Notes: generated by a model not told the origin, from the letters alone. A DNA stretch of 64,000 nucleotides from Candidatus Multivoradales bacterium (GCA_965248925.1 CBDFLE010000006.1:32001-96000); one strand, 5' to 3'. Counted from the stretch's first letter, positions 1 through 64,000 are shown. Translations and numbers: made by a program.

Positions 1-760
1 GGTTTCATCTGGGTAACTCGTCGGCGAGAACGTCCCGACGGCGAAGTCGGAATCTCCGGCTTCGGGTCTTCGGCGTAGATGCGTTGATCGCGATGGATAT
101 CGATGACGAAGACTTCGCCCGCATCGTCCAGGCCCTGAAGAAATGCTGGGTTGTTCCCATAACCACCATCAGCGGCAACCCAACGAAAGCGAAGGCCCTG
201 AGCCCGCGCTCTGTGGACCATCTCAAGAGCCAATTCCGGCTTGGTTTGAAACGTTCGTGCCGATTCCGGAACACCCGCTTGACGGCAGCGCTTCGGCGAG
301 TTGGTCCACTCGCGGGGCAGGTACAACCGGGCATCGATCAAGGACGCGCGATTGCCGTGACCGAGGCTGGCGAAAACGCCCACCTGACAGCTGTCGGTCT
401 TGCCCCGAGTTCCGCACCATTGCCGGGCCACCCCGACAGATTTCTTCCCCTTCTTCGGGAAACTCGACTCGTCGATAACCAGGCACGAATCCAGGGTGCC
501 GAATCCAGGGTGCCGCCCAGCTCGGCATCGACTCCCGCAGCAACCTGGTCCATAACCTTTTGACTCTCCCAGTCCGACACCGACAGGAAGTGATGCAAAG
601 CTTGGGAATCGGAATCGGGGACAACTTCAGCCATTTGCAGCATGGTAGCGCGTCGCGCCTGCATTAGGCCGCGAAGATACTGCCCCGCCTGCGGCAGCAC
701 ACTGCGTGTAAAGCGAGAGAAACAAAGGGCAAAGCCCTAGGCAAAATCCCACAACTCGCG
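1..760 (-). pseudogene. IS701-family DDE transposase, inactivated
   Basis: QYLRGLMQ..ALHHFLSVSDW in one frame continues as IDESSFPKKGKKSVGVARQWCG..RLYLPREW..TKPELA..ADGGYG in another. The frameshift is a 14-bp tandem duplication (487-500/501-514); there is also an in-frame TAG at 737-739. Confidence 0.85.
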
Positions 761-937
761 CCCCAGATTTTGGTAGGAAACTGGGGCATCGCTGATCTCC
801 GAACGACTAGGGAACTGGGGGCTCAAGCTGAGCCCTGAGTTCCTCCATGGGTTTAGTGACGGCCTTCATCGGGGCCGCCAATACAGGTTAAAGCCTTTGT
901 CGTCACCAATTTAAGTAATCTGACAAAGTAGAACTAA
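1..937 (-). mobile_element. IS701-family insertion sequence, left part (element runs off the window start)
   Basis: Transposase motifs on the minus strand (below). AATCTGACAAAGTAGAACTAA at 917-937 resembles IS701-type terminal sequence next to a TTAG/CTAG-like target; the exact end is inferred. Confidence 0.8.
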
Positions 938-1337
938 GGATCAGGTTGCTCGGGCTTGCCTAGACTCGACAACACTATTGCCCAAAATCGAGGGATTCGC
1001 CTTCGAGTTGTACAAGCCTCATCCCGACTGCGTCGATGAGTGGGGGGAGCAAGAGTTTACCAGTAGTTGGACTGAGCGAGCGCAGTGACGGTCAACTCCA
1101 GGCCTGGTGCAGATTCAAGGGTGAGATTCGTGCGGACGAGCAGGAAGGGCAACACCGCGCACTAAACGAACGGATGGTCAAGATGGGACGCATTCAAATC
1201 CAATTCCCTCGTGAGTTCGCAGCCTAACACTGGAGCCAGTTTTTTCATCAGGAATCTACCTTCTGGAAAAAAGTGCAGGATTTCAAAGTGAAATTCTCAG
1301 GGATGACCGGCGGAGAAAGCTGCTTGGTGATCTAGCA

Positions 1338-2960
1338 TCAACCAGCGCCCGGGTTACCCCCGGCGCGAGGGCCTGCTGGTGGTAACCCAGGCTCTCGGAC
1401 TTCCTGGAGGCAGCGTTGATACCGAGCCCATGCTTCGAGATAGAATCCCATAGAGGCAGGAAGCTCACCGTTCAAGAATTCAAAGAATCTCGGAACGCAG
1501 GCCTCACAGGCCTGCAGAGCGGCATTCGCCAAGCTTGCGGTCTCCTTCAAGAAATGTAGGCGTTCCTTCTCGGAGAGACAGGACGTAGTCTTGGCTCGAA
1601 TCCGACTCTGGAGGTAAGTTGTAATGCTCTCGGGCCTCTCCCACGGCCAGAGTCGTGCGACGTTGTCTTCGCCGGTGCTAAGTATCTTGTTGCCTTCTGG
1701 ATTAAACTTGGCTGATTTCATGCTGCCTGTGCTGCCGCCGAATACTGCGACTTCTCGGGAGGTCTCGGCACTCCATACACGCAGCGTACCGTCTTCCGAA
1801 GAGGTAACTATCCACCGCCCATCTGGGCTAAACGTCGCCGAGGTGACTGCTTTCTGATGGCCCTTCAACGTTCTAAACTCTCTCGTTGCCAAGGTCCAGA
1901 CGCGAGCTGTCTGGTCCTCGGACGCAGTTACGACAAACTTCCCATCGGGACTAAACTTGGCATCTCGAATCAATCCACGATGACCGAGGAGTGTCGACTT
2001 CGGGCTTCTGGAGGTTAGTTTCCTGGGAGGATCAGCGTTCCAGAGGTATACCTTCCTACCGGAGGCGGTCAACACCGTGCGGCTAGCAGAATCTAGCGCC
2101 ATGGCCTTGATCTGATTGTGGGGACTCCGTTTCAACAGCAACCTAATCTGTCTTATATAGCTCCACCAACGCAGATTCTGATCTTGCGAAGTGGTGAGAA
2201 TTCGGTTTCTCTCGACATCAAACAGTACTCCGGTAACCGACTCACGGTGTTTGAGTCTCTTTGGTTCTGGCCTTCTTTCACCGGTGGCTCTGCCCCAAAC
2301 CAAGGCCACGGAGTCAGGCGAGATGGTCACTATCCATTTCTCATCGGAGCTGAAGACCGCTTTTGTAACGGGACCGTCATGACCACTCAACGTATCTAGC
2401 GAGCCACCCGTTTCGGCATCCCATACTTTCGCGGTGCCGTCTTGAGATGCGGTCAGCACGCGAAGACCCTCTGGGGCACTCAGACCTTTCGGGTTGAATC
2501 TCGCCGTATTCACTCGGTTCAGATGTCCCTTGAGGATGTTCTCCTGCTCCCCTGTTCGCGCGTTCCAGATTATTGCGGTTTGATCTTCAGACGCCGTCAC
2601 AATCCGCGATCCCGAGGGATCGAAGGAAGCTTCCAATATTCGCTTGGCGTGCCCGGCAAAGGCGAACAGTTCGGCACCTGCCAACGGCTCGGTTGACGCC
2701 GAGTTTCCCGACTTGTGTTCTGGACTGGCGAGGGCTCTATTCAGCACTACGAAACTGTTTGGAACGTCCGCCGGTCGACGAATCTCCAGCAGCAAGAGTC
2801 TTGCTCTCAGTCCCGGTATCTGCTCAGCGGCAACATCGAAGATTTCCTGATCCGTAATATTGATATTCTCCGTCTTGGGATCTAACATTCCACATCCGAC
2901 TAGCACGGCCACTACCAGAGCACCGAACGAATCTGTGCCTCGCCAACGCTCAGTCCGCAT
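1338..2960 (-). CDS. WD40-repeat protein, probable lipoprotein
   Basis: About 8 GH..W[DNST] repeats; N-terminal hydrophobic stretch ending LVGC (lipobox-like); Cys-containing helical tail; starts 5 nt after the upstream stop. Confidence 0.85.
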   Translation of the reverse strand: MRTERWRGTDSFGALVVAVLVGCGMLDPKTENINITDQEIFDVAAEQIPGLRARLLLLEIRRPADVPNSFVVLNRALASPEHKSGNSASTEPLAGAELFAFAGHAKRILEASFDPSGSRIVTASEDQTAIIWNARTGEQENILKGHLNRVNTARFNPKGLSAPEGLRVLTASQDGTAKVWDAETGGSLDTLSGHDGPVTKAVFSSDEKWIVTISPDSVALVWGRATGERRPEPKRLKHRESVTGVLFDVERNRILTTSQDQNLRWWSYIRQIRLLLKRSPHNQIKAMALDSASRTVLTASGRKVYLWNADPPRKLTSRSPKSTLLGHRGLIRDAKFSPDGKFVVTASEDQTARVWTLATREFRTLKGHQKAVTSATFSPDGRWIVTSSEDGTLRVWSAETSREVAVFGGSTGSMKSAKFNPEGNKILSTGEDNVARLWPWERPESITTYLQSRIRAKTTSCLSEKERLHFLKETASLANAALQACEACVPRFFEFLNGELPASMGFYLEAWARYQRCLQEVREPGLPPAGPRAGGNPGAG

Positions 2961-2965
2961 ACCTG

Positions 2966-5900
2966 CTACTCAACGAGATGAATGTCCTCACCCGCCAAGC
3001 TCCCACTGTCGGTACGAAATCGAACTTCCCAAAGGCGGCCCTGACCGACATCCTCTGAAATCTCCATCCATGAGTAAATTTGTTCGGTCTCGTGAAACGT
3101 ATTGTCATAGTCCTTCTTCACTTGGTCGGTCACGCATACTCCACCCTCACGAGCTATCTCCATCACTCGGCTAGCAGTGTGGACTACCAGCCCGTGTGCA
3201 TCATCTCTGTCAACCTGCACCTCGCCGACGTGAACTCCTACTCGCACTGTGATCTTCTCGTGACCTGTTCGGCCTTCAAGCTCAACAGCGAACTTGAGCG
3301 CTTCTATCGAGCTACGAAAGGCTATCATGCGGCCGTCGCCAGTCGACTTCACAACAAAACCGCCATGCCTCTCGGCGAGAGTATCGGTCTTGTCGAAGTG
3401 TTGATTCCGCACTATCGCCCAGGCAGCGGCCTTTATTTCGTTTAGGAGATGAGTGCTTCGGACTACGTCAGTGAAGACGATCGCTAGCTGGACGTACTCG
3501 GAACTCGAGCCGCCTAACCATCCCCAGAGCCCATCGCGTCGCTCATCGCTCCCCGCCTGTTGCCTAAACAGGATCCTGGTCCTTAAATAGGTGCCGGACA
3601 GCAGCGCTGCAAGTAACAGAATCACGTACAATACCGGCCGGTCGAAAGGAAATCGCAGTACTCTCCGGTCTGCGAAACTCCAGCGGTGCGCCGGCAGTTG
3701 GGTCTTGTAGACCACGAAGTCAAGGCGGCGCGACAACTCGGCCTGTTCTTTCCGAGGATCCCAGACGAACCTACCTCGCTGCCCAGCGGCCAGCTCGAGG
3801 AAGGCGTCGGTCGTGAATGGGCCGTAGTAGTCCGGGGACCGGATCGCAACATGGTCTGCGCTGAAACTGTCGTCACCGATACTGATCAGGTCGACTGTCA
3901 GTCGATTTCCTACGAGGGACAGTCGGGCGCTCTGCCAATCGACTTTAGGAACGCGGTTTATGACCTGAATTGGGTCCAGGAACAGGTGTTTGCCGCCACC
4001 ACTCGTCACGACCAGGTCCAAGGCTGCCTCTTGTGTTGTCGGATACTCGTAGGAGCTTTGAAGCGAAACCTCGCCACGTAGCTCAGCTGTTTCTCCTGGC
4101 TCGATAACGACCTGTACGGGCGGCGGATGGAAGACCACCGGAGTGTTGACCGCCGATTTGACTTGGTTAACCTTCACCCAGATTGCTCGTTGCGGGCCTG
4201 GGTTTCTGAGCGTGAGTGTCAACGGCGCCAACTCACCGTCCGTGAGTCGGACTTGATCCGGTAGTCGTTTAGCAAGCTGCAGGTCAGGCGCGGACTCTGC
4301 GCGTTGCAAGGGCATCGACTCGAATACGCCGGAGTTGCTCTGGCGCAACAAGAGAGTGCCGTCATCATAGCGGTAGCAGCGCCCTTTGCGTCGGCAGTCG
4401 ATCCACTGACCTCGATCGCCGCCGAGGAGAACGCTGGAAAGCGTGCACCTTGCCACTTTACAAGGTGACCAGATCCTCACCACACCCTCGCCAATACCGA
4501 CGGTGGCCAACGCATCGCCAGCCTTCCCAAAAGCCGCAGCACTCAGCCCGTTGCGGTCGATACGGCCAGCCAGCGAGGCGTGCTGCTGACCAATCACCCA
4601 GACGAAAACCTCGCCGCCGCGCAGCACAACGCCGACTCTCGTCGGCGAGATGAAATGCACGGCCAACGCATCGCCAGCTAACCGCCTGCTACCGCTGGAC
4701 AGAAGATCCTTGGACTCAAGGTCCCAAAGATACAAGCCGCCGCCACCGAAAGCGCCGACTAGCCGCCTACCGTCGGAGCTGAAAGCCAAGGCCTGGACTC
4801 TCTGCTGGGGCATATCGTTGTCTCTCGAACTCGTCTGAGCGAAGCGACCGTAGAGTTCGCGCGTGGACAGGTCAAGAACTTGGACCATGCCGTCGTCGAA
4901 ACCCGCCGCCAGGAGACCGCCATCGGGAGAGAAAGCGAGCGCCGCTACCGCGGATGTCTGCGCCGGAAGCGGCGCTTGCCTATCAAAGCGTCGTGCACCG
5001 TCGGCCGCCCGTCGCCACCAAGTGATAGGCCCATCCTGGAAACCGGCGGCCAGCGTGTCGCCCATAGCACTGAGCGCGAGGCAGCGAGGCGCCTTCCCTC
5101 CAGAGAGTGGAAACGTCCAAGGGCCGTGAGCCGGCTTGCTGTTGCGGTCCCAAAGCCGGATCGCTCCTCTGGAGCCTGCCACCAGACTCTGCCCGCCGTT
5201 GCCGAACGCCAGCGCCTTGACTAGCGGCACACCTCCTCCGAGTCGGCGCACCAGCTGGCTGGATGAGAAGGACCAGATTCCTACGAAACCCTCGCGTGTC
5301 CCCGCCGCAAGGAGTCTGCCGGAAGGACTGGGGCTGAGTGCGAAGACCTCGTCGCCGAAGTTCTCCAGCTGCGCCACCTCAGTGCCGGCAACGTAGCTCC
5401 AGAGCCGCACGCTACCGTCGCGCGAGGCAGAAGCAACCATATGGCCGTCCGGATGCCACACCACAGCCGTAGCAGCTAAGCGATGGCCTTCGAAAAGGCG
5501 CACCATTTTGCCGGTGTCGACCTCCCAGACCCGAACAGTGCTGTCGGCGGACGCCGAAGCCAAGAACTCTCCCTTCGGCCCCCAACTGACCGCATTCACA
5601 CGCTCATCGTGAGCGCCCTTAATCGTTGGTCCAAGAGGTTTGCCGTCGGCAGCATTCCAGAGCTTGATCGTGCGGTCCCACGATCCGGTGGCCAGAGCAT
5701 GGCCGTTAGGATGCCAGGCAAGCGCGGCAATCCTCTCGCCGTGTGCAGACCAAGCCGGCAGCTTGGCGGCACCAGTCCGCGGATCTAAGATCGTGACTGT
5801 GCCGTCTTTGGAACCGATCGCCAACAGGTCAGCGCGAGGGCTAAAGGCCACCGTCCAACCACTCCAGCGACGCGGTTGCCGGTCCGCTTTAAGGTCCCAG

Positions 5901-6430
5901 AGCCGTACCGTGCCATCGTCAGAGCTACTGGCTAACCAGCGACCATCAAAACTGAAAGAGAGGGTCTCTACGGGGCCTGAATCGTCTTCTAGCCGAAAGC
6001 TCTCTAGACCCGTTTCTAGGTCCCACAATGCGACGACACCAGCCGCCCCTCCGGTCGCCACCTCTCTGCCGTTTGGATGCCAGGCGAGCGCGTAGAGTGC
6101 CTCTCTTGATTTGACGCCGGAGAGCAGTTCTGCAGTTTCTTCAATCGACTCAGCGAACTTCTCACCGCCGAGAACCAGTGGCAGTAGGTCTTGGGTCGGC
6201 TGCGCGGCAGCCGGCCCAGGCGTTGAGTAGACTGTTAAGAAAGCGCATGTAACCAGAGTTCCCCAGCTCGACCAAGCCCGGCACGACAAAGCGTGAAGCA
6301 TAGCTGCTAGAGACGAAGGCACAGGTTTTAGGCGAGAAGAAGACCCATCGTGAAACTTCGCCAAGCTAGACCCGGAGGACACGCTAACCGGACGCGACCT
6401 CGATCTTCTCCTCCATCGTGGACGAGGCAA
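2966..6430 (-). CDS. Membrane-anchored WD40-repeat / class III adenylate-guanylate cyclase
   Basis: Signal-like segment ending AAAQP, about 13 WD40 repeats, a beta-rich Ig-like region, TM VLYVILLLAALLSGTYL, then cyclase motifs VFTDVVRST, VKSTGDG, RVGVHVGEV, DAHGLVVHTASR. Alternative start ATG 6301. Confidence 0.85.
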   Translation of the reverse strand: MPRPRWRRRSRSRPVSVSSGSSLAKFHDGSSSRLKPVPSSLAAMLHALSCRAWSSWGTLVTCAFLTVYSTPGPAAAQPTQDLLPLVLGGEKFAESIEETAELLSGVKSREALYALAWHPNGREVATGGAAGVVALWDLETGLESFRLEDDSGPVETLSFSFDGRWLASSSDDGTVRLWDLKADRQPRRWSGWTVAFSPRADLLAIGSKDGTVTILDPRTGAAKLPAWSAHGERIAALAWHPNGHALATGSWDRTIKLWNAADGKPLGPTIKGAHDERVNAVSWGPKGEFLASASADSTVRVWEVDTGKMVRLFEGHRLAATAVVWHPDGHMVASASRDGSVRLWSYVAGTEVAQLENFGDEVFALSPSPSGRLLAAGTREGFVGIWSFSSSQLVRRLGGGVPLVKALAFGNGGQSLVAGSRGAIRLWDRNSKPAHGPWTFPLSGGKAPRCLALSAMGDTLAAGFQDGPITWWRRAADGARRFDRQAPLPAQTSAVAALAFSPDGGLLAAGFDDGMVQVLDLSTRELYGRFAQTSSRDNDMPQQRVQALAFSSDGRRLVGAFGGGGLYLWDLESKDLLSSGSRRLAGDALAVHFISPTRVGVVLRGGEVFVWVIGQQHASLAGRIDRNGLSAAAFGKAGDALATVGIGEGVVRIWSPCKVARCTLSSVLLGGDRGQWIDCRRKGRCYRYDDGTLLLRQSNSGVFESMPLQRAESAPDLQLAKRLPDQVRLTDGELAPLTLTLRNPGPQRAIWVKVNQVKSAVNTPVVFHPPPVQVVIEPGETAELRGEVSLQSSYEYPTTQEAALDLVVTSGGGKHLFLDPIQVINRVPKVDWQSARLSLVGNRLTVDLISIGDDSFSADHVAIRSPDYYGPFTTDAFLELAAGQRGRFVWDPRKEQAELSRRLDFVVYKTQLPAHRWSFADRRVLRFPFDRPVLYVILLLAALLSGTYLRTRILFRQQAGSDERRDGLWGWLGGSSSEYVQLAIVFTDVVRSTHLLNEIKAAAWAIVRNQHFDKTDTLAERHGGFVVKSTGDGRMIAFRSSIEALKFAVELEGRTGHEKITVRVGVHVGEVQVDRDDAHGLVVHTASRVMEIAREGGVCVTDQVKKDYDNTFHETEQIYSWMEISEDVGQGRLWEVRFRTDSGSLAGEDIHLVE

Positions 6431-6434
6431 GCTA

Positions 6435-7727
6435 TCAACGGGCCGCCGCTGTCAGGCAATCAATCGGCGGCCGCCCTTGTTCCAACGGCGAAGATTCCGG
6501 CTCGCTGATCCAATTCTCAGGAATCGTTGTTGCAGCCAGTAGTCGGTGCTTCTTGGCTCTTGGCAACCAGGAGTCGAGTTCGAGTGCTAGCCAGAAGGCC
6601 TCTCCTGACAGGACATACAAGTGGCGTGTCGCGCGCTGCGTCGGAAGTCGTACCTCACCTAGCACTTGGACGATGCCTTTGTTGAAATCCGGCTCCAACT
6701 TGACAACCCTCCAAGTCGTTACTCCAGGCCTCCGGCCCTCCGGCCCGCGGAGCAGAGCATAGAGGAACTCTCCAACGGAATAGAGTCCGACCGGGATTTT
6801 CATCCCCTCGACGCTCTTGTACATCTCGGCAACAGTGCCAGCTGGCGGATAAGGCATAGACTCGTTGGAGCCAGGAAACCCCTCTAGTCGGCCGCGCGAG
6901 CCGTCCCTCGTGTCGTAGTAATGCAGACTAGGGGAGGTGCTCATCTCCAAAAAGTACACCAAGTCGCCTGCGACAGCGATGAACTCGTGATGGAATGCGT
7001 AGTGTCGGTACCCAGGTACATCCCAGATCATCTGAGCCTTCGGCGTGACGTTGGCATTCCCTGGCGTCTGGACTTGGGTTAGGTAGAAACCTTCTCGAAC
7101 GACGTCAAGACGTCCGTCAATCCCTAGCGCGCCGTAGGCGAAGAACTGATCGGCCACTGGCTGCCAATCAAACATCGACATCACCCGATTGTCCTCGATC
7201 AGCTCTCCCGTCATTCCAACGCGGCTCACCAACTCTGTTCGACCCCGCTTGAGGAGACTTGCGTCGAACCACTGGATGGAGCTGGGAATACCGTTTCCAA
7301 GATTCAGATTTAGACCAACGAAGCCGCCATTGCTGCGCTTGATGCCGTAGACGATTTCACGGACCGGCTCATCGCCGACAGCGGTCAGCGACTCCTTTGG
7401 GTAGTAGTCGCCAGCGCGACTAGCCGACAAGCTCTGCTCGACCGTGACGGAGCCGCTTACGATATCGCGGCTCAACGCCAACTCAAGACTCTTCCGATCA
7501 AACATACTCACGAGCAACGCCCGCGATTGCTCGACATCGCCCCAGGTAGCGAAGTTGAACTTGGAAGCTTGCCAATCCGAGTTGACCGACTCGCGCCAAC
7601 AGCCTTCCGCCCGAGAACCGCCCGCGATCAATCCTCCTATCAAAGCGAGCAACAGGGAGAGGCCGAGACCTCCGGGGTACCAACGGTCGATACCCGAATT
7701 GAGCTGAACATTCGTTCGAGTAGTCAT
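6435..7727 (-). CDS. Secreted hypothetical protein, possibly beta-propeller-like
   Basis: Long ORF with hydrophobic signal (LGLSLLLALIGGLIAG) and beta-strand-rich body; start ATG 7727 chosen because it follows the upstream peptide gene's stop and GAGGG. Confidence 0.7.
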   Translation of the reverse strand: MTTRTNVQLNSGIDRWYPGGLGLSLLLALIGGLIAGGSRAEGCWRESVNSDWQASKFNFATWGDVEQSRALLVSMFDRKSLELALSRDIVSGSVTVEQSLSASRAGDYYPKESLTAVGDEPVREIVYGIKRSNGGFVGLNLNLGNGIPSSIQWFDASLLKRGRTELVSRVGMTGELIEDNRVMSMFDWQPVADQFFAYGALGIDGRLDVVREGFYLTQVQTPGNANVTPKAQMIWDVPGYRHYAFHHEFIAVAGDLVYFLEMSTSPSLHYYDTRDGSRGRLEGFPGSNESMPYPPAGTVAEMYKSVEGMKIPVGLYSVGEFLYALLRGPEGRRPGVTTWRVVKLEPDFNKGIVQVLGEVRLPTQRATRHLYVLSGEAFWLALELDSWLPRAKKHRLLAATTIPENWISEPESSPLEQGRPPIDCLTAAAR

Positions 7728-7746
7728 GGTCTGGCCGCCCTCTGAA

Positions 7747-7941
7747 TCAGTTAACATTTTCTTCATTGCGGCAAACACCATTAGCGCTCATGCAAGGAAC
7801 GCCGGTTCCCAGGACCAAACCTGTGGCTCCGCGGCATTGACTGCCGAGAGTGCCCTCGCTGGCCTGGGTCGACATCGGCGCCACCTGCACTAGCCCGACG
7901 ATCAAAACGAGCAACAATAATCTAACGCAGACTCTGCTCAT
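7747..7941 (-). CDS. Small secreted Cys-containing peptide (64 aa precursor)
   Basis: GAGGAG SD about 10 nt upstream of ATG; Sec-type signal (basic n-region, LLLLVLIVGLVQV, TQA cleavage); about 37-aa mature part with 3 Cys; first gene of the operon. Confidence 0.65.
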   Translation of the reverse strand: MSRVCVRLLLLVLIVGLVQVAPMSTQASEGTLGSQCRGATGLVLGTGVPCMSANGVCRNEENVN

Positions 7942-8372
7942 ATCTCAATGCTCCTCAGTATCAAATGCTCATGTGCTCATGCCTGCCTAAGGGGAAGTTT
8001 CCGGATCGACTCGTGTCGATTTCAGACACCAGACTCAGCGCGCCGAAGGTCGCAGATTCGATTGCCGCTAGTGGTAGTGGCTAGCATTCCTCGCGCCTCA
8101 ACTGCTTGACCACAGAACCGAAAAGCTGGTCCCAATTCGGCTCAACAACCTGTAAATCCCCGTCTGATGAGTCAAGTATCCCCTTACGGACCTCGGTTTG
8201 CAATCCCAATGTACCGCTTCCTATCTCACTATCCTAGTACCTCTCGTGTTCCTCCAGACCCTGCTACGCGGCCCTCGTCGGGTCTCTAAGCTTAACCCAG
8301 TCAGCTGTTTAGGGGGCCGAGATTATCAATTTCTGTGCAGGCAGCTGGCGAGCGGGCTGCCACCTGCTCGAT

Positions 8373-8546
8373 CGAAGCCTGGCCCAGCAGGTGATCGCCG
8401 AGCTACGGCAGATGAACGAGTTGGTCCGGCGCAGCCAACGCCTGGAGGTGATCGAGCAACTTCGCGAGGAGATCCGAACTAACCCTGCTCCTCGGCCTCT
8501 CGCCCCACCTCCCGAGGAGCTGCTGCGTCAGGGCCGCGATCGATGA
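8373..8546 (+). pseudogene. 5'-truncated FitA/VapB-like antitoxin
   Basis: Frame reads RSLAQQVIAELRQM..PPPEELLRQGRDR* and overlaps the toxin start as ATGA. Upstream the frame hits TAG at 8310 with no start for the N-terminal DNA-binding part. Confidence 0.65.
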
Positions 8547-8962
8547 GGCCGCAGGCGGTGCTCGACGCTTCGGCCGCGCTGCACGCAGTGCTAACCCAAG
8601 AACATGCCAGCGAAGTCCTGGACTTCCTGCACGGAACCGCCTTGGTGCTAGTGCCCGCTCTATTTACCAGCGAAGTGACCAACGGGCTGTGGAAATACGT
8701 TCGCAGCGGCCAGATCACCCGCCACCGTGCTATCCAACTACTCGACCAGGCACTGAAGCTAGTCGATTCGGTGGTCGACGACCGCGACCTCGCCCGCGAA
8801 GCCTTGGTCCTAGCGGCCGCGCACTCACACCCGGCTTACGATGCCCTCTATGCCGTGCTGGCACGTCGCAACGGCTGCCCTTTGCTAACGTTCGACCGGC
8901 GCCTGGTCAAGTTGCTGGGGAAGCTCGGTGTTGAGGCTTGGGTTCCAGCCTCCAGCACTTGA
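8543..8962 (+). CDS. vapC: PIN-domain toxin (VapC family)
   Basis: VLDASA, SEVTNGL, AYDALY and LLTFDRRL: the acidic PIN residues are present. Confidence 0.88.
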   Translation: MRPQAVLDASAALHAVLTQEHASEVLDFLHGTALVLVPALFTSEVTNGLWKYVRSGQITRHRAIQLLDQALKLVDSVVDDRDLAREALVLAAAHSHPAYDALYAVLARRNGCPLLTFDRRLVKLLGKLGVEAWVPASST

Positions 8963-8976
8963 CCGACCGAGCTGCT

Positions 8977-8999
8977 GGGCCGGCAGAGGTCGCCGGCCC
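8977..8999. terminator. GC hairpin between convergent genes
   Basis: GGGCCGGC-N7-GCCGGCCC perfect inverted repeat; no U-tract. Confidence 0.45.
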
Positions 9000-9006
9000 G
9001 AAAGGC

Positions 9007-9321
9007 TCAATCCTTGGCCGACTCGAACAGCGACTTCACCGCTACGACCAGCATTGCCGGGGAGATGAACACCACGACATTGCCGAGTATCTGAGTAATC
9101 TGCTCACCCACGTAAGGCAGCTGCTGAATCGACGAGGCCGATAGAATCAGCGCAATCGCCGCCAGCAGAAAACCGCGGCTCTCGTCGGCGGTGATATTCA
9201 GCAGCCCCACCACCACACCCAAGATCGCCAACAACCACCAGATCCAGCCCAGGTTGACGAATCCAGCGAGGACGGCCAGCACAACACCAGCCAAGAAAGC
9301 GTATTTCCCAACTTGCCCCAT
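9007..9321 (-). CDS. Small integral membrane protein (about 4 TM)
   Basis: Hydrophobic throughout, GLLNIT..E..FLLAAIAL pattern; AAGGAG upstream. Confidence 0.8.
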   Translation of the reverse strand: MGQVGKYAFLAGVVLAVLAGFVNLGWIWWLLAILGVVVGLLNITADESRGFLLAAIALILSASSIQQLPYVGEQITQILGNVVVFISPAMLVVAVKSLFESAKD

Positions 9322-9580
9322 TTCTTCTTCTCCTTCTTTTGGCTACCAGCCACCAAAGCGCACGCACCATCGGCCGGCGCGGCCAAGCCGCCAGTAGCAC
9401 TGTCGATAGGTCAGATTGGGGCCAGGTTATCACACCGGAGGAACCTCGAAATTGCCGGCCGGTCCAGCAAGCAGGGTTCACGCAGACTCTTTGAAAGTCT
9501 CTAGCACCATCACCGCCAAACGGCCCGTGCAGGCCATGGTATAAACTCCCTGCCCCCCTTGGAGGCAGTGAGGACCCACC

Positions 9581-11350
9581 GTGCAGACCGCATTCCTACT
9601 CTTTGTTCTTGTCGCCGCTTTTGGGCTCTTGATCACCCAGGTGGTGCGCTTCGAGATCGTCTCGTTGGGGCTGGTGGCGGTGCTGGCTTTGGCCGGTGTC
9701 TTGACCACCCAGGAGGCGCTGTCGGGGTTCTCCAATAGCGCTACCCTCACCGTTGCCGCCATGCTGGTGTTGAGCGCCGGATTGGTGCGTTCGGGGGTGG
9801 TCGACTTGGTGGGCACTCTGGTTGAACGCTGGGCGGCGGGCAGTCCGGCGCGGCTTCTATTCACCGTCGGCATGGTCACCGCCGTGCTCAGCGCTTTCAT
9901 GAACAACACGGCGATCATCGCGCTGATGATTCCGGTGGTGTTGGCGCTGTCGAGCAAAGTCAATATCTCGGCTTCTAAATTGCTGATGCCGCTGTCGTTC
10001 TTCGCCATTCTCGGCGGCACTTGCACGCTGATCGGCACCAGCACCAACATCTTGGTCGACTCGCTCTACCGCGACGCCGGCGGGCCTGGCTTTGGCTTGT
10101 TCGATTTTGCCGGCATGGGATTGATCTATCTGCTGGTGGGCTCGGTTTACCTGATGCTCTTCTGGAAGAAGCTGCCCGACAATACGGTGTTTAGCCAGAT
10201 CCTCGACCCCAGCTCGCGCAGCCAATTCGTCACCGAGGTCACGGTGCCAGCCGACAGCCGCTACCTCGGGCGCCCGCTGTCCGAATTGCTCGGCCGACTT
10301 AAGGATGTCGAGGTCTTGGAGCTGATCCGCAACGAGCAAGCCAGCCTCGGCCCGGCCGCCGATACGATCATCGAGCGGGGGGACACCTTCCTGCTCAAGG
10401 GCAGCGGCGCCACCTTGAACCAACTGGCAGAACGCGATGGGGTCGGAGTCGGCAGCACGGTGGCCGACGGTGAGCGCATCGTCATGAGCCGCTTCGATCT
10501 ACACACCACCGAAGCGGTGATCCTACCCAACTCGCCTTTGATCGACCGACGGGTGCGAAACGCAGGCCTCAACCGCCGCTTTGGCGTCTTTGTGATGGCG
10601 GTACGACGGCTCGGCGGCGGCCATCACATCCGCAACTTGCGCTCGCTGCGGCTGCGATCCGGCGACGTGCTGCTGATCCAGGGAGAACCCGCGGCGCTCC
10701 ACACTCTGCAAGAGGATGCCGGGGTGCTGCTGATCGAGGGAATCGAAGCCCGGCTGACCTTCCCCCGCAAAGCACCGATGGCCATCGCCATCTTGGTCGC
10801 CGTGGTGGCTCTGGCAGCCTTGGGCATCGGCGAGATTGTGGTGCTCAGCCTGGCTGGGGTGGCAGCCATGCTGCTGACCCGCTGCTTGACCGTCAGCCAG
10901 GCCACCCGCGCCCTCGACAGCTCGGTCTTGCTACTGCTCGCCGGCATGATTCCCCTCGGCGTGGCGATCAACAGCAGCGGCCTGGCCAGCACCGCCACCG
11001 GGTGGCTGGTGGCCCATCTCGGCGACTTGGGTCCGGTGGCGATCATCAGCGGTTTCTACCTCTTCACTTCGCTGATGACGGCGGTGCTGTCGAACGGCGC
11101 CACCGCGGTCTTGCTGGCGCCGATCGCTCTAGAACTCAGTCAGCAGACCGGCATCGAACCGAAGGCCCTCCTGGTGGCGATCGCCTTCGGTGCCAGTGCC
11201 AGCTTCGCCACTCCGATCGGCTACCAGACCAACACCATGGTGATGGGCCCTGGCGGCTATAGCTTCGGCGACTACCTGCGCTTCGGTGGCCCGCTGAGTC
11301 TGATCATGTGGCTGGCGGCGACTCTCCTGCTCCCCCTATTCTGGCTCTAG
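9581..11350 (+). CDS. SLC13/CitMHS-like permease with TrkA-C domains
   Basis: SAFMNNTA, LGGTCTLIGTSTN, two soluble TrkA-C-like repeats, SFATPIGYQTNTMV..GGY.F.DY. Confidence 0.9.
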   Translation: MQTAFLLFVLVAAFGLLITQVVRFEIVSLGLVAVLALAGVLTTQEALSGFSNSATLTVAAMLVLSAGLVRSGVVDLVGTLVERWAAGSPARLLFTVGMVTAVLSAFMNNTAIIALMIPVVLALSSKVNISASKLLMPLSFFAILGGTCTLIGTSTNILVDSLYRDAGGPGFGLFDFAGMGLIYLLVGSVYLMLFWKKLPDNTVFSQILDPSSRSQFVTEVTVPADSRYLGRPLSELLGRLKDVEVLELIRNEQASLGPAADTIIERGDTFLLKGSGATLNQLAERDGVGVGSTVADGERIVMSRFDLHTTEAVILPNSPLIDRRVRNAGLNRRFGVFVMAVRRLGGGHHIRNLRSLRLRSGDVLLIQGEPAALHTLQEDAGVLLIEGIEARLTFPRKAPMAIAILVAVVALAALGIGEIVVLSLAGVAAMLLTRCLTVSQATRALDSSVLLLLAGMIPLGVAINSSGLASTATGWLVAHLGDLGPVAIISGFYLFTSLMTAVLSNGATAVLLAPIALELSQQTGIEPKALLVAIAFGASASFATPIGYQTNTMVMGPGGYSFGDYLRFGGPLSLIMWLAATLLLPLFWL

Positions 11351-11737
11351 AGCCCTTAGTTATAGACACTTATGCCACTATTGCACTAATAAGATACTCT
11401 TAACTTCATCTCTGCCTTCAGTTAGAACCACTTGATGCAGAGATTTCGCTCTCAAATCCCCGCTCCCCTGCTACACTCCCGACTGCCTAGAAACTCGGAT
11501 CATCCGAAGTCAGGAACACGAGCATCGGGGGGGGGAGAGTGGTGCTTGTGCTTGCGCTCGTTTCAAGTTGGTTCCTCCGATCGGCTCCACGATCAGGCCA
11601 GCTGGGGCCCGCCAGCCTCGGTCGGCTGGTAGTCGATCGGCGGAGGCTCCCGAGCCGCTGCCGTTTTCCTCCTGGGCACCGCAGTTGCGGTCTTTTCCGT
11701 CCGCACTGGAATCTCTCTCGTGAAGGAGAACAAGGTA

Positions 11738-13275: not shown

Positions 13276-14709
13276 ATGATCCGCACCCTGGTGCCGGGCC
13301 TTACCCGGCCACTGGTAGCGCTATTCGCCATCACCACGATGGCGAATAGCGTGGTGATGGGCGAGCCGCCGCACGACCCAACCGGCATCCACGGACGTAC
13401 TGCCTTGATGGTCGCCGCGGCGGCCGGCGACAATGACTTGGTCGTAGCGCTGCTCGGCTCAGGCGCCAAACTCGAGGCGGTCGACGATTCTGGCAACAGC
13501 GCCCTCTTCTTCCTGCCACCTAGCGACGACCCACGGATCACCGAACTGCTGCTCAGCCACGGTGCTCGGGTTCAGCAGACCAACAAGGCCGGCAGCACAG
13601 CCTTGGTGTCGGCGGCTCTTCTCGGCCGCCAAGAAATTGCCACGATGCTCTTGCAAGCAGGCGCCGACCCCGACCCGCTGCCGCGCAGCGGCCGTAGCGC
13701 TTTCGCGGAGGCAGTGCTGCATGGCCATCCACAGATCGCCCGCCTGCTGCACCATGCCGGAGCGCGGGTCAACCCACCTCTGCGGCGCGACGGCAGCCTG
13801 CTCCACCAGGCCGCACAGACTGGCAACGCTGCCGCCGTCGAGCTGCTGTTGGATCTCGGCGCACCGGTCGACGCCGGTCTCGACGACCTCGACTGTTGCC
13901 AGGGTCAGACTCCTCTCCACCGCGCGGCTGCCCGTGGCCACGCGGCGGTGATCGCTCGCCTGGCCGCTCACCAGGCAGCGTTAGAAACCACCGATATCAA
14001 AGGCCGTACTCCCCTGCTGGCCGCCGCCTTCGCCGGCCACGCTGAAGCCGTCATCAGTCTGCTCCAAGCCGGTGCCGACCCCGACCGGCGAGCCCAAGAC
14101 GAAGCACGGACTCCACCCCTGGTCGGCGCCGCCGCCGAAGGCCACACAAGCGTGGTCAGGGCCCTACTCGCTGCCGAAGCCAAGGTTGACATCACCAATC
14201 GCTACCGGGTCAATGCCCTGATGCAAGCGGCGTTCAAAGGCCACAGCGAGGTCGCACGTGCCTTGCTGGCCAAGCAAGCCGATCTGGCGGCGTTGAATCT
14301 CGAAGGTCATTCGGCACTCGCCTACGCCGTGGTGCGCAATCATCCCGAGTTGGTGCAGCTGCTCACCGACCACGGCGCCGCCATCGACAGCCGGGTCTAC
14401 ATCGCCGTCTTTGGCGACGTCGACTTGCTGATGCTGGCTGCTGGCCGTGGCCATCTCGAGAACACTCGAACCCTGCTAGCCAAAGGTGCCCCGGTCGACA
14501 GCTGGAGCGAGGTCGAGGGCATTGGTCGGGTGACCCCACTGATGGTGGCCAGCGCTCGCGCTCTGCTCGAAGTGGTCGACTTGTTGCTCGCGGCCGGAGC
14601 CGATCCCAATCTCGCCACGCCCGACTCTCCCTCCGCCCTCGACCGAGCCCGACAAGCAGGCCACATGGAAGTTCTCGAACGCCTGACGAAGCAGCCGAAG
14701 CCTCAGTGA
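13276..14709 (+). CDS. Ankyrin-repeat protein, probably secreted
   Basis: Numerous G.T[PA]L..AA..G....V..LL..GA repeats; N-terminal hydrophobic segment. Confidence 0.92.
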   Translation: MIRTLVPGLTRPLVALFAITTMANSVVMGEPPHDPTGIHGRTALMVAAAAGDNDLVVALLGSGAKLEAVDDSGNSALFFLPPSDDPRITELLLSHGARVQQTNKAGSTALVSAALLGRQEIATMLLQAGADPDPLPRSGRSAFAEAVLHGHPQIARLLHHAGARVNPPLRRDGSLLHQAAQTGNAAAVELLLDLGAPVDAGLDDLDCCQGQTPLHRAAARGHAAVIARLAAHQAALETTDIKGRTPLLAAAFAGHAEAVISLLQAGADPDRRAQDEARTPPLVGAAAEGHTSVVRALLAAEAKVDITNRYRVNALMQAAFKGHSEVARALLAKQADLAALNLEGHSALAYAVVRNHPELVQLLTDHGAAIDSRVYIAVFGDVDLLMLAAGRGHLENTRTLLAKGAPVDSWSEVEGIGRVTPLMVASARALLEVVDLLLAAGADPNLATPDSPSALDRARQAGHMEVLERLTKQPKPQ

Positions 14710-14745
14710 ATGCCGCAGCCACCGGGCGGGCAGTATACTCAAGAG

Positions 14746-15393
14746 ATGTCGCACCTCGATTTATGGAAACAGCAGCTCGGCGCGGTGCCCGATGAAGTCT
14801 GGCAGCAAACCGAACTCGAGTCACTAGTGCTGGCCGACAACGGGCTCACCGAGGTCTCCGAGCAACTTGGCAACTTGCAGCGTTTGCGGATGCTCGACCT
14901 CGGCCACAACGCCCTCCGCCAATTGCCCGAGGCGATCGGCAAGCTCGCCGACTTGACCGACTTCCTTTATTTGCACGACAACAGATTGCGCCAACTGCCG
15001 CCCGCCATTGCCAGGCTGACAGGGCTGCGTTACCTGAATCTCAGCGAGAACGAATTCAGCGCCCTACCAGACTCGATCTACCAGCTGACCGAACTGCGCG
15101 AACTCCGCGCCTCGGGCAACAAATTGACCTCACTCAGCGAGGCTCTCGGCCAGCTGGACCAGCTGCGCGAACTACACCTGAGAGACAATCAGCTCACCTC
15201 CCTACCCTCTGCCATCGGCCAACTGAGAGAGCTGCGGCAGCTCGATTTGCGGGGCAATCCGCTGGCCTCCTTACCCACAGCAATCAGCCAGTTGCCCGAA
15301 CTTCACAAGCTCGATTTGCGCTGGGTACCGGCGCTCGATCCGCCGAGCTGGTTGCCGGCCCTCGAAGCGCGGGGAGTTCTGGTCTACCGCTAG
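14746..15393 (+). CDS. Leucine-rich-repeat protein
   Basis: Repeated L..L.L..N.L..LP..I..L units. Confidence 0.9.
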   Translation: MSHLDLWKQQLGAVPDEVWQQTELESLVLADNGLTEVSEQLGNLQRLRMLDLGHNALRQLPEAIGKLADLTDFLYLHDNRLRQLPPAIARLTGLRYLNLSENEFSALPDSIYQLTELRELRASGNKLTSLSEALGQLDQLRELHLRDNQLTSLPSAIGQLRELRQLDLRGNPLASLPTAISQLPELHKLDLRWVPALDPPSWLPALEARGVLVYR

Positions 15394-15474
15394 GCCAGAG
15401 GCCACCGGCGGACTGCTAGCGGATCGCGGGCTGCTACACTGCCGCATTCCCTCAGGTCGAAAGCAGAATGAATA

Positions 15475-63342: not shown

Positions 63343-63352
63343 GACATTGACC

Positions 63353-64000
63353 TCAGGCCGCCACCGCCGCGTTAGCCTGACGGGCCTGCGGCAAGGTGGT
63401 GAAGTAGACATCGGCCAGATCGGGTGCCACCGGCTCGAAGTCCACTGCCGGGCACTCGTCGGCAAGAACGCGAATCTCCGTGCGGCCGGCGAACAGGCGG
63501 CTCGACAGCACCCGGTAGCGGTCGCGATAATCCGCCAGTTCTTGCTTCGCCACCACCCGCTTCCACACCTTGCCCTCGAGTCCGCCGATCGCCGTGGCGG
63601 GCTCGCCGGTGTGCCACACTTTGCCCTCGCCGAGGATCGCCATACGGCTGCACAGATCGCTGACATCTTCGACAATGTGAGTCGACAAGATCACCACCAC
63701 CTGCTCGCCGATTTCTGCCAAGAGATTGAGAAAACGCGCCCGTTCCTCCGGATCTAGACCAGCGGTCGGCTCGTCGACGATCACCAGCTTGGGCTCGCCG
63801 AGCAACGCCTGTGCAATGCCAAACCGCTGCTTCATGCCACCTGAGAAAGTGCCCAACCGCTTCTTGCGATGCTGGTGCAGATTGGTCTGGTGGAGCAGCG
63901 CATCGACCAGCGCCATGCGCTCTTTACGCCGGGTAAGACCCTTGAGTACCGCGAAATGGTTGAGCATCGCCTCGGCACTGATTTTCGGGTAGACGCCGAA
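63353..64000 (-). CDS. ABC transporter ATP-binding protein (5' end outside the window)
   Basis: FSGGMKQR signature, IVDEPTAGLDP, LSTHIVED. Confidence 0.93.
   Translation of the reverse strand, partial: FGVYPKISAEAMLNHFAVLKGLTRRKERMALVDALLHQTNLHQHRKKRLGTFSGGMKQRFGIAQALLGEPKLVIVDEPTAGLDPEERARFLNLLAEIGEQVVVILSTHIVEDVSDLCSRMAILGEGKVWHTGEPATAIGGLEGKVWKRVVAKQELADYRDRYRVLSSRLFAGRTEIRVLADECPAVDFEPVAPDLADVYFTTLPQARQANAAVAA

Follow-up and report, generated by a model that had tools for sequence, protein, structure and literature searches.

BT4663 of Bacteroides is a hybrid two-component sensor in which two seven-bladed Reg_prop propellers and a Y_Y_Y domain are followed by a transmembrane (TM) segment; the ligand is placed on the propellers and the spacer also dimerises (PMC5121618, excerpted text). 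A scissor-like movement is given for BT4663-type sensors in the accessible part of PMC8534201. In STAND proteins, WD40 repeats are described as the sensing part (PMC7159879, in excerpt). An earlier note on the locus analysed here had held its layout to be without precedent; this did not stand, as two periplasmic propellers, an Ig-like spacer and a TM segment are already combined in BT4663-type sensors (PMC5121618, same excerpt). The double-propeller/Y_Y_Y periplasmic sensor of the BT4663 type is the closest known layout.

Animal natriuretic-type receptor guanylyl cyclases are single-pass proteins whose ligand-binding portion faces outward and whose class III cyclase acts as a dimer within the cell. 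Class III cyclases, GGDEF domains and STAND NTPases are active only as dimers or oligomers. Propellers are commonly peptide-binding, and in methylamine dehydrogenase (heavy and light chains) and methanol dehydrogenase (MxaF/MxaI) the gene of a periplasmic propeller lies next to that of a small exported subunit.

The window, meaning the whole 64,000-nt stretch of DNA that was analysed, comes from an Acidobacteria-type bacterium and carries four co-oriented ORFs on its minus strand, as the earlier note had read them and as translation bears out:

7747..7941, minus strand: small secreted peptide gene, 64 aa; signal peptide at residues 1–27 (nt 7861–7941) and a 37-aa mature part with 3 Cys
7771..7794, minus strand: C-x6-C loop close to the C-terminus of the peptide, Cys50 to Cys57; both Cys invariant in 14/14 aligned peptides
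6435..7727, minus strand: secreted six-bladed beta-propeller gene (fold from a model), 430 aa from ATG 7727; signal peptide at about residues 1–40, conserved Cys43 and Cys424
2966..6301, minus strand: single-pass receptor cyclase gene, 1111 aa from ATG 6301; 1154 aa from the alternative TTG 6430
6203..6301, minus strand: predicted receptor signal peptide, ending A-A-A/Q-P (read from sequence)
4466..6133, minus strand: about 13 WD40 repeats in two propellers, predicted extracytoplasmic (Pfam WD40 and beta-propeller families; repeat ends)
3641..4465, minus strand: stalk, a Cys hairpin W-x2-C-x5-C-[YFW]-R-x-D-D-G and then two Ig-like beta-sandwiches (model and alignment)
3566..3637, minus strand: single transmembrane helix; hydropathy peak at residues 924–955, hydrophobic helix at 932–955, homologues hydrophobic at the equivalent place
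3104..3499, minus strand: class III nucleotidyl cyclase catalytic domain, minimal type; Guanylate_cyc (PF00211) at 1.6e-11, 44.5 bits with the cut-off at 21.9
1338..2960, minus strand: WD40 lipoprotein gene, 540 aa; lipobox L-V-G-C23, Cys-containing helical C-terminal part

The contents predicted for these genes (the peptide precursor with its Cys-containing mature part, the secreted protein and the WD40 lipoprotein) agree with the translations, hydropathy and WD40 matches. A predicted spacing of 4–19 nt was upheld in part. Read from the sequence, 19 nt separate the peptide stop from the propeller-gene ATG at 7727 and 5 nt separate the receptor stop from the lipoprotein ATG at 2960, but the 4-nt gap between the propeller-gene stop and the receptor depends on a start at TTG 6430. 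The stored gene call (P0161) has 1111 aa and begins at ATG 6301 (M44), leaving a 133-nt gap behind the propeller gene. When the upstream start was checked, the alignment of receptor homologues began only at the signal peptide, and TTG 6430 is probably not used. The four-gene order of the window is found again at two further loci (L001 and L015), thus the arrangement is beyond chance. The cassette in the window is flanked by a transposase fragment and a PIN-domain gene.

The receptor matches the Pfam WD40 profile (PF00400) at 1.4e-67; of its approximately 13 repeat ends, 10 were located by regular expression and 3 by eye. The stalk matched no Pfam family at E up to 1, and structure matches of its model (pLDDT 73.3) are to tandem Ig-like domains. 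The W, C, C, R, D, D and G of the stalk hairpin are invariant in 9/9 sequences. Profiles, hydropathy and the fold model together agree with the single-pass protein proposed earlier, in which WD40 repeats and an Ig-like spacer precede the TM helix and a class III cyclase follows it. The topology check pointed the same way. Since all 8 receptor homologues whose N-terminus is intact begin with a signal-peptide-like stretch, one TM helix lies before the cyclase and the ectodomain Cys pairs are invariant among homologues, the WD40 region is most likely extracytoplasmic. The A-x-A signal-peptide site is also present in P0164, L001 and L015.

Among solved structures, the nearest relatives of the cyclase domain are Ma1120 (4wp8; 1.1e-15) and 1ybt (1.5e-10). 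The NCBIfam LipJ model also matches this part at 1.4e-17, far from reaching its equivalog cut-off of 800 bits. Aligned with Ma1120, the window domain retains both Asp of the F-T-D and G-D-G motifs, taken here as the metal-binding pair, together with the Lys, taken as one of the Lys/Asp specificity residues, and the Arg. The specificity residues are presumably of the adenylyl Lys/Asp type, and cAMP is the predicted product. At the canonical transition-state Asn of N-x-A-[AS]-R the window cyclase has His (V-V-H-T-A-S-R) with the Arg kept; the same Asn-to-His exchange occurs in both close orthologues (L001 and L015).

Related ectodomains carry different outputs. A class III cyclase is joined to the WD40 ectodomain at four loci, recognised by the Guanylate_cyc profile in the window and L042, and by 58 % and 53 % identity to the window C-terminus in L001 and L015, respectively. 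A GAF-GGDEF output is present at two loci (L017 and L044), and an nSTAND1 NTPase (PF20703) at no fewer than, that is at least, five (L041, L046, L047, L048 and L053), making it the commonest output found among the relatives' ectodomains; L016, P0163 and P0164 have no output domain. The window receptor has no nSTAND1 domain, its C-terminal part being the cyclase. By these comparisons, ectodomain and helix appear to form a portable sensor module with exchangeable outputs. Given that all three outputs work only as dimers or oligomers, the signal would most likely cross the membrane by induced pairing or clustering of receptors, raising cAMP in the window bacterium.

The range of outputs also bears on whether the family could be cell-surface surveillance receptors, of a conflict or immunity type, for a foreign or danger-related molecule, with relatives answering by STAND NTPase and TIR and the window member by a cAMP alarm. 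Besides the prevalence of nSTAND1, which is named a clade of counter-invader systems in the accessible text of PMC8195603, an AAA-TIR gene follows the L041 receptor (TIR_2 at 22.6 bits, short of the cut-off of 28), the L017 receptor is bordered by HEAT-NACHT and kinase-AAA genes, a TIR protein comes after a distant peptide-propeller pair in L018, and the position of the window cassette between transposase fragment and PIN-domain gene would fit as well. However, the window cassette holds no STAND, TIR or other effector gene, cyclase and GGDEF domains are everyday signalling outputs, no link to phages or defence is in evidence, and the argument draws on relatives with 25–35 % identity in the shared part. 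A surveillance function is considered distinctly unlikely.

The N-terminus of the 430-aa protein is hydrophobic by hydropathy and its A-x-A/E-x-C site is conserved in the alignment, and judged from its predicted structure it is a new family of six-bladed beta-propeller. No Pfam or NCBIfam family matched it, none of 52 family members has any Pfam match, and 394 relatives were found in a library of 1.84 billion proteins. The model (pLDDT 87.2, pTM 0.86) is all-beta and its structure matches are six-bladed propellers, with 3s9j_A at the top (Z 16.9, rmsd 4.5, 299 aligned) and Kelch and NHL propellers tied within about 1 Z unit; sequence identity to the structural matches is 5–10 %. ESM Atlas leads were likewise clusters of six-bladed propellers, with scores <0.9. 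Across the whole genome, DUF5128 (PF17170) and TolB_like (PF15869) gave no match at E up to 1 while their controls matched; the DUF4221 (PF13970) profile gave none either, its control likewise matching in no genome.

The 64-aa peptide has a hydrophobic N-terminus, a T-Q-A/S cleavage-type site ahead of its mature part and GAGGAG 8–9 nt ahead of its ATG. In relatives, too, the ORF is conserved ahead of the propeller gene. Of the 35 propeller-family ORFs examined, 18 are directly preceded by a signal-peptide ORF whose product ends in a C-x6-C loop, where 0.44 would be expected by chance: the peptide criteria were passed by 25 of 8640 frames, 18 of the 25 being within the 510-nt upstream windows of the 35 ORFs, with the loop recorded as an attribute of the small ORFs and not used as a filter. 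Most of the small upstream ORFs have a GGAGG-type site before the ATG, and two propeller proteins carry the peptide motif as an N-terminal fusion. These upstream ORFs and the two fusions suggest that the peptide is probably partnered first by the six-bladed propeller rather than by the WD40 receptor. For most pairs there is no WD40 receptor in the vicinity; none of 23 further loci (L018–L040) gave a match to WD40, stalk, cyclase or lipoprotein, and neighbours of the pair are varied, including CarboxypepD_reg, TIR, pentapeptide-repeat and metallophosphatase proteins. Peptide and propeller form an older and far more widespread two-gene unit than the receptor cassette, and are most likely the small and large subunit of one secreted complex.

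Alternatively, the mature peptide could be a diffusible self-made signal of autocrine or quorum type, bound directly by WD40 propellers on the receptor and on a lipoprotein co-receptor, with the 430-aa protein as a processing or presenting accessory. Its Sec signal peptide and conserved disulfide-type loop are consistent with this, as are its place as first gene of the cassette in 7/7 receptor-linked loci and the readiness with which propellers bind peptides. Conversely, the genomic partner of the peptide is the propeller, mostly without a WD40 receptor, and a motif fused to a propeller is ill-suited to free diffusion. Conservation outside the loop is low among the 14 aligned peptides, which is compatible with co-evolving specificity and equally with a structural subunit. 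Nor is there good support for the part of co-receptor given to the lipoprotein earlier. It has a WD40 match at 2.6e-60 and a lipobox of the pattern [LVI][ASTVI][GAS]C, seen by eye after a hydrophobic stretch (L-V-G-C23 in the window, L-T-G-C in L001, L-I-S-C in L015), but only 3 of the 7 loci with a linked receptor carry it, with orthologues in L001 and L015 only, and is better described as a lineage-restricted accessory. A free peptide signal seems improbable, and the subunit reading is kept.

A search for a peptide ORF and a homologue of the secreted protein upstream of WD40-TM receptors, proposed with the original description, found both at 7 loci. Of the claim that ligand, accessory, receptor and co-receptor form one cassette, the recurrence of the pair by the receptor survives, but the peptide travels with the propeller and the lipoprotein is confined as above. 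When 24 genomes from the same bacterial family were searched with the stalk, 6 had the stalk domain, and in 6/6 of these a co-oriented propeller-family gene lies no more than 2 genes upstream; a single-protein query of 400 other genomes sampled across the phylum found no stalk domain. Peptide, propeller and WD40-TM-cyclase follow one another at the metagenome locus L042 as they do in the window, and at L017 and L041 one further gene lies between propeller and receptor. Pairwise identities of propeller and stalk correlate (r = 0.91; 21 pairs from 7 loci), six of the seven linked loci coming from one bacterial family and so not being independent. The pair is kept beside the receptor through the output swaps, down to approximately 19–30 % identity. 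A propeller-family ORF is present in only 1 of 18 metagenome loci with a stalk domain, most of which are uninformative on the propeller, at least 1.5 kb upstream of the stalk frame being available in only about 6 of the 18. L002 has a propeller orthologue at 48 % identity and no receptor on its 13.8-kb contig.

The pair might instead work on its own outside the cytoplasm, perhaps as a hydrolase or binding protein equipped with a small subunit, and have no more than an operon or regulon in common with the receptor, which would then use its own propellers, in the manner of BT4663-type sensors, to sense something else such as a glycan or envelope component. The many unrelated neighbours of the pair, the metagenome stalk receptors mostly lacking a propeller-family gene on the same contig, the six-bladed hydrolases among the fold matches of the propeller (SMP30, PON1 and sialidases) and the direct binding of sugars by BT4663 propellers (PMC5121618, in excerpt) are all in keeping with this. 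Against it, pair and receptor have remained neighbours through their own divergence and three changes of output, the pair lies upstream in every stalk-bearing genome of the family, and no catalytic signature was recognised in the propeller family, whose near-invariant residues are mostly Gly and Pro. Independence of the pair is judged unlikely, although to be taken seriously.

The reading tentatively preferred, at somewhat short of probable, is a propeller-built, periplasm-facing sensing complex with the pair as the receptor's outside partner and cAMP as output. The signal peptide would export two WD40 propellers, the disulfide hairpin and two Ig-like stalk domains beyond the inner membrane, and one helix with a linker of about 35 residues would join this ectodomain to the minimal cyclase. 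In one lineage the pair appears to be inherited with the receptor and would most likely serve as its outside partner, as co-sensor or presented ligand. More broadly, it is possible, if rather less likely, that these proteins are an undescribed bacterial family of single-pass surface receptors, with exported WD40 propellers on an Ig-like stalk and interchangeable oligomerisation-dependent outputs (cAMP, c-di-GMP, STAND NTPase with TIR partners), one lineage of which reads the state of a secreted heterodimer of propeller and C-x6-C peptide. If so, the nSTAND1 members would be membrane-spanning NLR-like receptors sensing outside the cell.

Among known systems, the likeness of the pair to methylamine and methanol dehydrogenases would be one of layout only; the window peptide is far smaller than the methylamine dehydrogenase light chain, and no sequence or cofactor signature is shown for the pair. 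The DUF4221 propeller of Bacteroides (3s9j), Kelch, NHL and SMP30/PON1 proteins share the six-bladed fold with the 430-aa protein at the low identity given above. Ma1120 and LipJ (Rv1900c) of mycobacteria have the same short catalytic core and FTD...GDG...R motifs as the window cyclase; they are soluble or lipase-fused, whereas the window cyclase hangs from a TM helix under a large ectodomain and has His at the canonical Asn position.

The resemblance to animal peptide-receptor guanylyl cyclases drawn in the earlier note holds for layout: both are single-pass and sense outside the cell, the class III cyclase lying within. It does not extend to domain content, as no ANF-receptor ectodomain or kinase-homology domain was found in scans of the stalk and C-terminal part, where Guanylate_cyc was the sole match, nor among the 25 of 50 families listed for the whole receptor. 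In the window receptor, unlike the animal proteins, no coiled-coil dimeriser is seen, the specificity residues are presumably of adenylyl type, and the peptide is probably a subunit of another protein. STAND/NLR-type proteins (Apaf-1 type; bacterial nSTAND1) resemble relatives of the window receptor in joining WD40 repeats to an NTPase, nSTAND1 in the relatives. In known STAND forms sensor and NTPase share one compartment, whereas here the WD40 part carries a signal peptide and lies before a TM helix, and the window receptor has a cyclase instead.

With BT4663, so far as the excerpted source extends, the window receptor shares an N-terminal export signal, a set of two propellers, a single pass through the membrane next to an Ig-like, all-beta spacer, and a cytoplasmic signalling enzyme of dimer type. 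The two differ in their building blocks. The window propellers are WD40-type rather than Reg_prop and the stalk has no Y_Y_Y match; in the genome, Reg_prop (PF07494) and Y_Y_Y (PF07495) matched above cut-off in three other ORFs and not in the receptor. In place of the BT4663 histidine kinase, the outputs here are class III cyclase, GGDEF or nSTAND1, and, unlike BT4663, the window receptor has a peptide-propeller pair encoded alongside it.

The cassette consists of four head-to-tail ORFs on the minus strand, and the spacings of 19, 4 and 5 nt between them match those of the earlier note. The ORFs and the features flanking them are:

7747–7941, minus strand: peptide, 64 aa
6435–7781, minus strand: secreted six-bladed propeller protein, 430 aa from ATG 7727
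2966–6430, minus strand: WD40 receptor cyclase, 1154 aa from TTG 6430
1338–2960, minus strand: WD40 lipoprotein, 540 aa
3–626, minus strand: DDE_5 transposase fragment, flanking the cassette and extending past the window start
8543–8962, plus strand: PIN-domain gene, flanking the cassette

The tight 4 nt spacing before the receptor depends on TTG 6430; the stored gene call (P0161) starts at ATG 6301 and is 1111 aa long. In sequence comparison the similarity of homologues begins at the signal peptide, with none before it. Given the stored call and this limit of homology, the gap between propeller and receptor is probably 133 nt. A Tat-type signal in the Arg-rich stretch after TTG 6430 was ruled out, as the stretch lies ~40 residues before the hydrophobic core and homologues are without it. 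The peptide ATG is preceded by GAGGAG 8–9 nt to its 5′ side, and a scan of 600–9600 gave 3 promoter-like and 10 terminator-like sites, against 2.3 and 7.5 expected. Four sequencing runs contain the window sequence; they derive from one sample and one study, are probably the assembly source, and none is RNA. The transposase fragment lies ~700 nt downstream of the lipoprotein gene. A small ORF at 8198–8482 (plus strand) just precedes the PIN gene, and the two resemble a toxin–antitoxin pair. Among the neighbouring genes examined, none adjacent to the cassette encodes a cyclic-nucleotide-binding protein. At 13276–18069 (plus strand) three consecutive genes encode an ankyrin-repeat protein, a leucine-rich-repeat protein and a Ser/Thr kinase that also has TPRs and a Trans_reg_C DNA-binding domain.

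The receptor had been described as ~13 WD40 repeats, an Ig-like spacer, a transmembrane helix and a cyclase, and Pfam, hydropathy and the fold of the stalk agree with this order. Residues ~100–650 match WD40 (1.4e-67) and many propeller families in Pfam, and ~13 repeat ends can be counted, 10 by regular expression and 3 by eye. The single hydrophobic helix spans residues 932–955. The 280 residues before it match no Pfam family; a model of this stalk region from a 9-row alignment is all-beta (pLDDT 73.3) and resembles Ig-like sandwiches in tandem (pilus chaperones, ASH/MSP-type repeats, IG1+IG2). A hairpin of the form W-x2-C-x5-C-[YFW]-R-x-D-D-G opens the stalk and is invariant in all nine sequences. 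Read from M44, the N-terminus resembles a signal peptide that ends in A-A-A/Q-P, and all 8 homologues with an intact N-terminus start in a signal-peptide-like manner. Since the cyclase must face ATP, and there is one helix and an export signal, we infer that the WD40 part is extracytoplasmic. Many WD40-stalk receptors (loci L042–L057 and L001, stored proteins P0164 and P0166) share a short motif, P-[LI]-[VI]-P-x-G-E, after the signal peptide; the window receptor has a weaker form, P-L-V-L-G-G-E.

The receptor C-terminus is a Guanylate_cyc domain in Pfam (44.5 bits against a cut-off of 21.9), and among solved structures it is closest in sequence to two minimal cyclases of mycobacteria, Ma1120 (1.1e-15) and LipJ (1.5e-10). 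The alignment shows that both metal-binding Asp residues are kept, as are the Lys of V-K-S-T-G-D-G, the Asp that precedes H-G, and the Arg; this is the adenylyl-type set. The canonical Asn is replaced by His, likewise in the related loci L001 and L015. Given this replacement, with the other catalytic residues present, activity of the domain is likely, though not certain.

No Pfam or NCBIfam family matches the 430-aa protein, and Pfam gave nothing for any of 52 family members. Word-based search found 8 close relatives, and a profile search of a library of 1.84 billion proteins found 394 at E ≤ 0.001, 104 at 1e-10 and 15 at 1e-30, the matches mostly spanning residues ~180–420. The model from a 52-row alignment (pLDDT 87.2, pTM 0.86) has about six four-stranded sheets, and both Foldseek and VIA-align return six-bladed propellers for it. 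The top structural match is 3s9j (DUF4221; Z 16.9), with Kelch and NHL propellers tied at 15.8. PF17170 and PF15869 match nowhere in the genome; the PF13970 profile also has no match there, and its control matched nowhere either. In the ESM Atlas the nearest clusters are nameless (0.90–0.92), and named leads fall below 0.9. The hydrophobic N-terminus leads into a conserved A-x-A/E-x-C site. Of the Cys residues, Cys424 is invariant, and Cys43 is kept in every row covering the N-terminus. We infer that the protein is exported and that its ends are tied by a disulfide.

The peptide likewise has no Pfam or NCBIfam match; Defensin_3 alone appeared, at 16.5 bits, below its cut-off of 18. Peptide-like frames were sought around 35 propeller-family ORFs (E ≤ 1e-3) on 29 sequence stretches (508 kb in total). 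A stop-to-stop frame qualified if it contained a hydrophobic stretch, had two or more Cys among its final 45 residues and had C-x6-C within its final 30. Only 25 of 8640 frames passed. Of these, 18 lie in the 510 nt that precede a propeller ORF on the same strand, against a chance expectation of 0.44, which gives 18 of the 35 propeller ORFs an upstream peptide ORF. For most of these small ORFs the start is an ATG preceded by a GGAGG-type site, and at locus L021 the peptide is a C-x5-C variant. Across 14 aligned peptides, the invariant positions are just the Met, a single Gly and the pair of loop Cys. Additionally, two propellers without a separate peptide bear the motif between their own signal peptide and the propeller:

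L039, 11730–13295: propeller with fused motif, C-x21-C-x6-C
L002, 7492–9366, minus strand: propeller with fused motif, C-x6-C; a 623-aa paralogue of the propeller (7492–9363)

None of 23 further loci (L018–L040) matches the WD40 part, stalk, cyclase or lipoprotein. The upstream enrichment, the fusions and these receptor-free loci point to the six-bladed propeller as the conserved partner of the peptide. The earlier note had cast the peptide as ligand of the receptor. Their co-encoding in the cassette favours that view, but the partnership with the propeller, upstream, fused and at loci free of the receptor, goes against it, and the peptide is best read as a small partner of the new secreted propeller and not as a free ligand. 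A complex prediction for propeller residues 41–430 (52 rows) with peptide residues 28–64 (14 rows), run without controls, scored 0.02 against a mark of 0.32 and is neutral on binding. The genome of the window holds a second pair (L020, 8164–9524; G000:C6, ~1.3046 Mb). The next gene encodes a CarboxypepD_reg/PEGA protein, and L035 and L038 have comparable 880-aa CarboxypepD_reg neighbours. A TIR-domain protein lies directly after the distant pair of L018 (5603–6700, minus strand), and a pentapeptide-repeat membrane protein just downstream of that of L026 (6500–8167).

Recurrence of a small ORF and a homologue of the secreted protein upstream of WD40-TM proteins, proposed earlier as a check, was seen at 7 loci. 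The three genes, for peptide, propeller and WD40-stalk-TM protein, point the same way in the window, L001, L015 and L016; in L017 with a HEAT-NACHT gene in between; in L041 with a 456-aa unknown protein in between and a longer peptide (~130 aa); and on the metagenome contig L042 with a C-x7-C peptide. Among genomes of the bacterial family that bear the stalk, the pair is upstream of it in all six. Pairwise identities of propeller and stalk run in parallel (r = 0.91; 21 pairs, 7 loci). This shows propeller and stalk to be inherited as a unit and, among kin, nothing beyond that. Several observations argue against close functional coupling: L002 encodes a 48 % identical propeller but no receptor; a propeller-family ORF is present on only 1 of 18 metagenome stalk loci, few of which extend far upstream; and a single bacterial family accounts for 6 of the 7 linked loci. 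The neighbours of the L002 propeller orthologue are the paralogue with the fused motif and a metallophosphatase-TM protein, much of which lies outside the membrane (9360–11711, minus strand); an integrase-like gene is located upstream.

The lipoprotein carries a lipobox (L-V-G-C23) and WD40 repeats (2.6e-60), and its helical tail contains Cys. Its proposed role as co-receptor fits the co-encoding in the window, L001 and L015, the only two further loci with orthologues after the receptor, but not its absence at L016, L017, L041 and L042; on this distribution it is an accessory of the closest cyclase-type loci. In L042 a protein with an FGE-sulfatase-type domain (5524–6402, plus strand) takes its place after the receptor cyclase. 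Pentapeptide-repeat membrane proteins are encoded just downstream of the cassette in L015 (14940–15974), L001 (16475–18169) and L042 (6435–7697).

The receptor ectodomain is a portable module. Of 24 genomes from the bacterial family of the window, 6 gave a match to the stalk region, as did 18 metagenome contigs; across the phylum, a single stalk query was positive in 1 of 401 sampled genomes, the window's own, and in 0 of the 400 others. Behind the helix, Pfam places Guanylate_cyc in the window and L042, and cyclase output was assigned in L001 and L015 because their C-termini are 58 and 53 % identical to that of the window receptor. GAF-GGDEF follows in L017 and L044, and an nSTAND1 NTPase in L041, L046, L047, L048 and L053. 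L049 gave a weak AAA_22 match and nothing else, and Walker motifs were recognized by eye in P0166 and P0167. Only a short tail is found in L016, P0163 and P0164, and tails of 160–195 aa without an identified domain in L043, L051 and L057. The stored proteins P0005 and P0164 are both assigned to one 13,229 nt contig. After the nSTAND1-type receptor of L041 lies a gene for an AAA protein with a weak TIR_2 match (519–1940, minus strand). Class III cyclases, GGDEF domains and STAND NTPases all require pairing or oligomerization. Since this need is common to the three output types, the ectodomain would signal by bringing receptors together.

The gene arrangement described in the earlier note is confirmed, and the interpretation given there has partial support. 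As a whole, the cassette is best read as encoding a periplasmic sensing complex of several propellers, with a WD40 receptor cyclase at its centre. What is new here is a variant of a known receptor type together with an unannotated two-gene family. To our knowledge, the bacterial WD40 propellers described so far are nearly all cytoplasmic scaffolds or STAND sensors; if the reading is true, they would here be exported and form the ligand-binding part of transmembrane receptors. One ectodomain coupled to cAMP, c-di-GMP and STAND/TIR outputs would then be a clean natural experiment on single-pass pairing signalling, and would link ordinary second-messenger signalling with immunity-type modules. 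The peptide–propeller pair is a sizeable unannotated family, of an architecture simple enough for function to be assigned at the bench. Should the reading fail, four hypothetical genes are still correctly annotated.

A possible parallel lies in Bacteroides, where NVEALA peptides may adjoin six-bladed propeller lipoproteins; no mention of NVEALA, DUF4221 or BF3164 was found in the literature searched. The likeness to animal receptor guanylyl cyclases drawn in the earlier note holds for topology and for nothing beyond it. nSTAND1 is a named clade of counter-invader systems (PMC8195603), and an exported WD40 sensor on a TM-linked STAND protein is not described in the passages of PMC8195603 and PMC7159879 that were examined. 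The statement that no system of this layout had been described stands in so far as no report was found of exported WD40 receptors with cyclase outputs or of the peptide–propeller pair, but the periplasmic sensor of BT4663-type hybrid kinases comes near. The window receptor is not of that family, as the above-cut-off Reg_prop/Y_Y_Y matches of the genome fall in three other ORFs. Three true Reg_prop and Y_Y_Y proteins are encoded elsewhere in the genome; within the window, a 1316-aa ORF (59725–63675) has a Y_Y_Y match of 15.3 bits at 60007–60090 (minus strand), below cut-off. The BT4663-type sensor nevertheless has the layout nearest to that of the receptor: two seven-bladed propellers, to which sugars bind, and an all-beta Y_Y_Y spacer that also dimerizes (PMC5121618), and scissor-like signalling has been reported for sensors of this type (PMC8534201).
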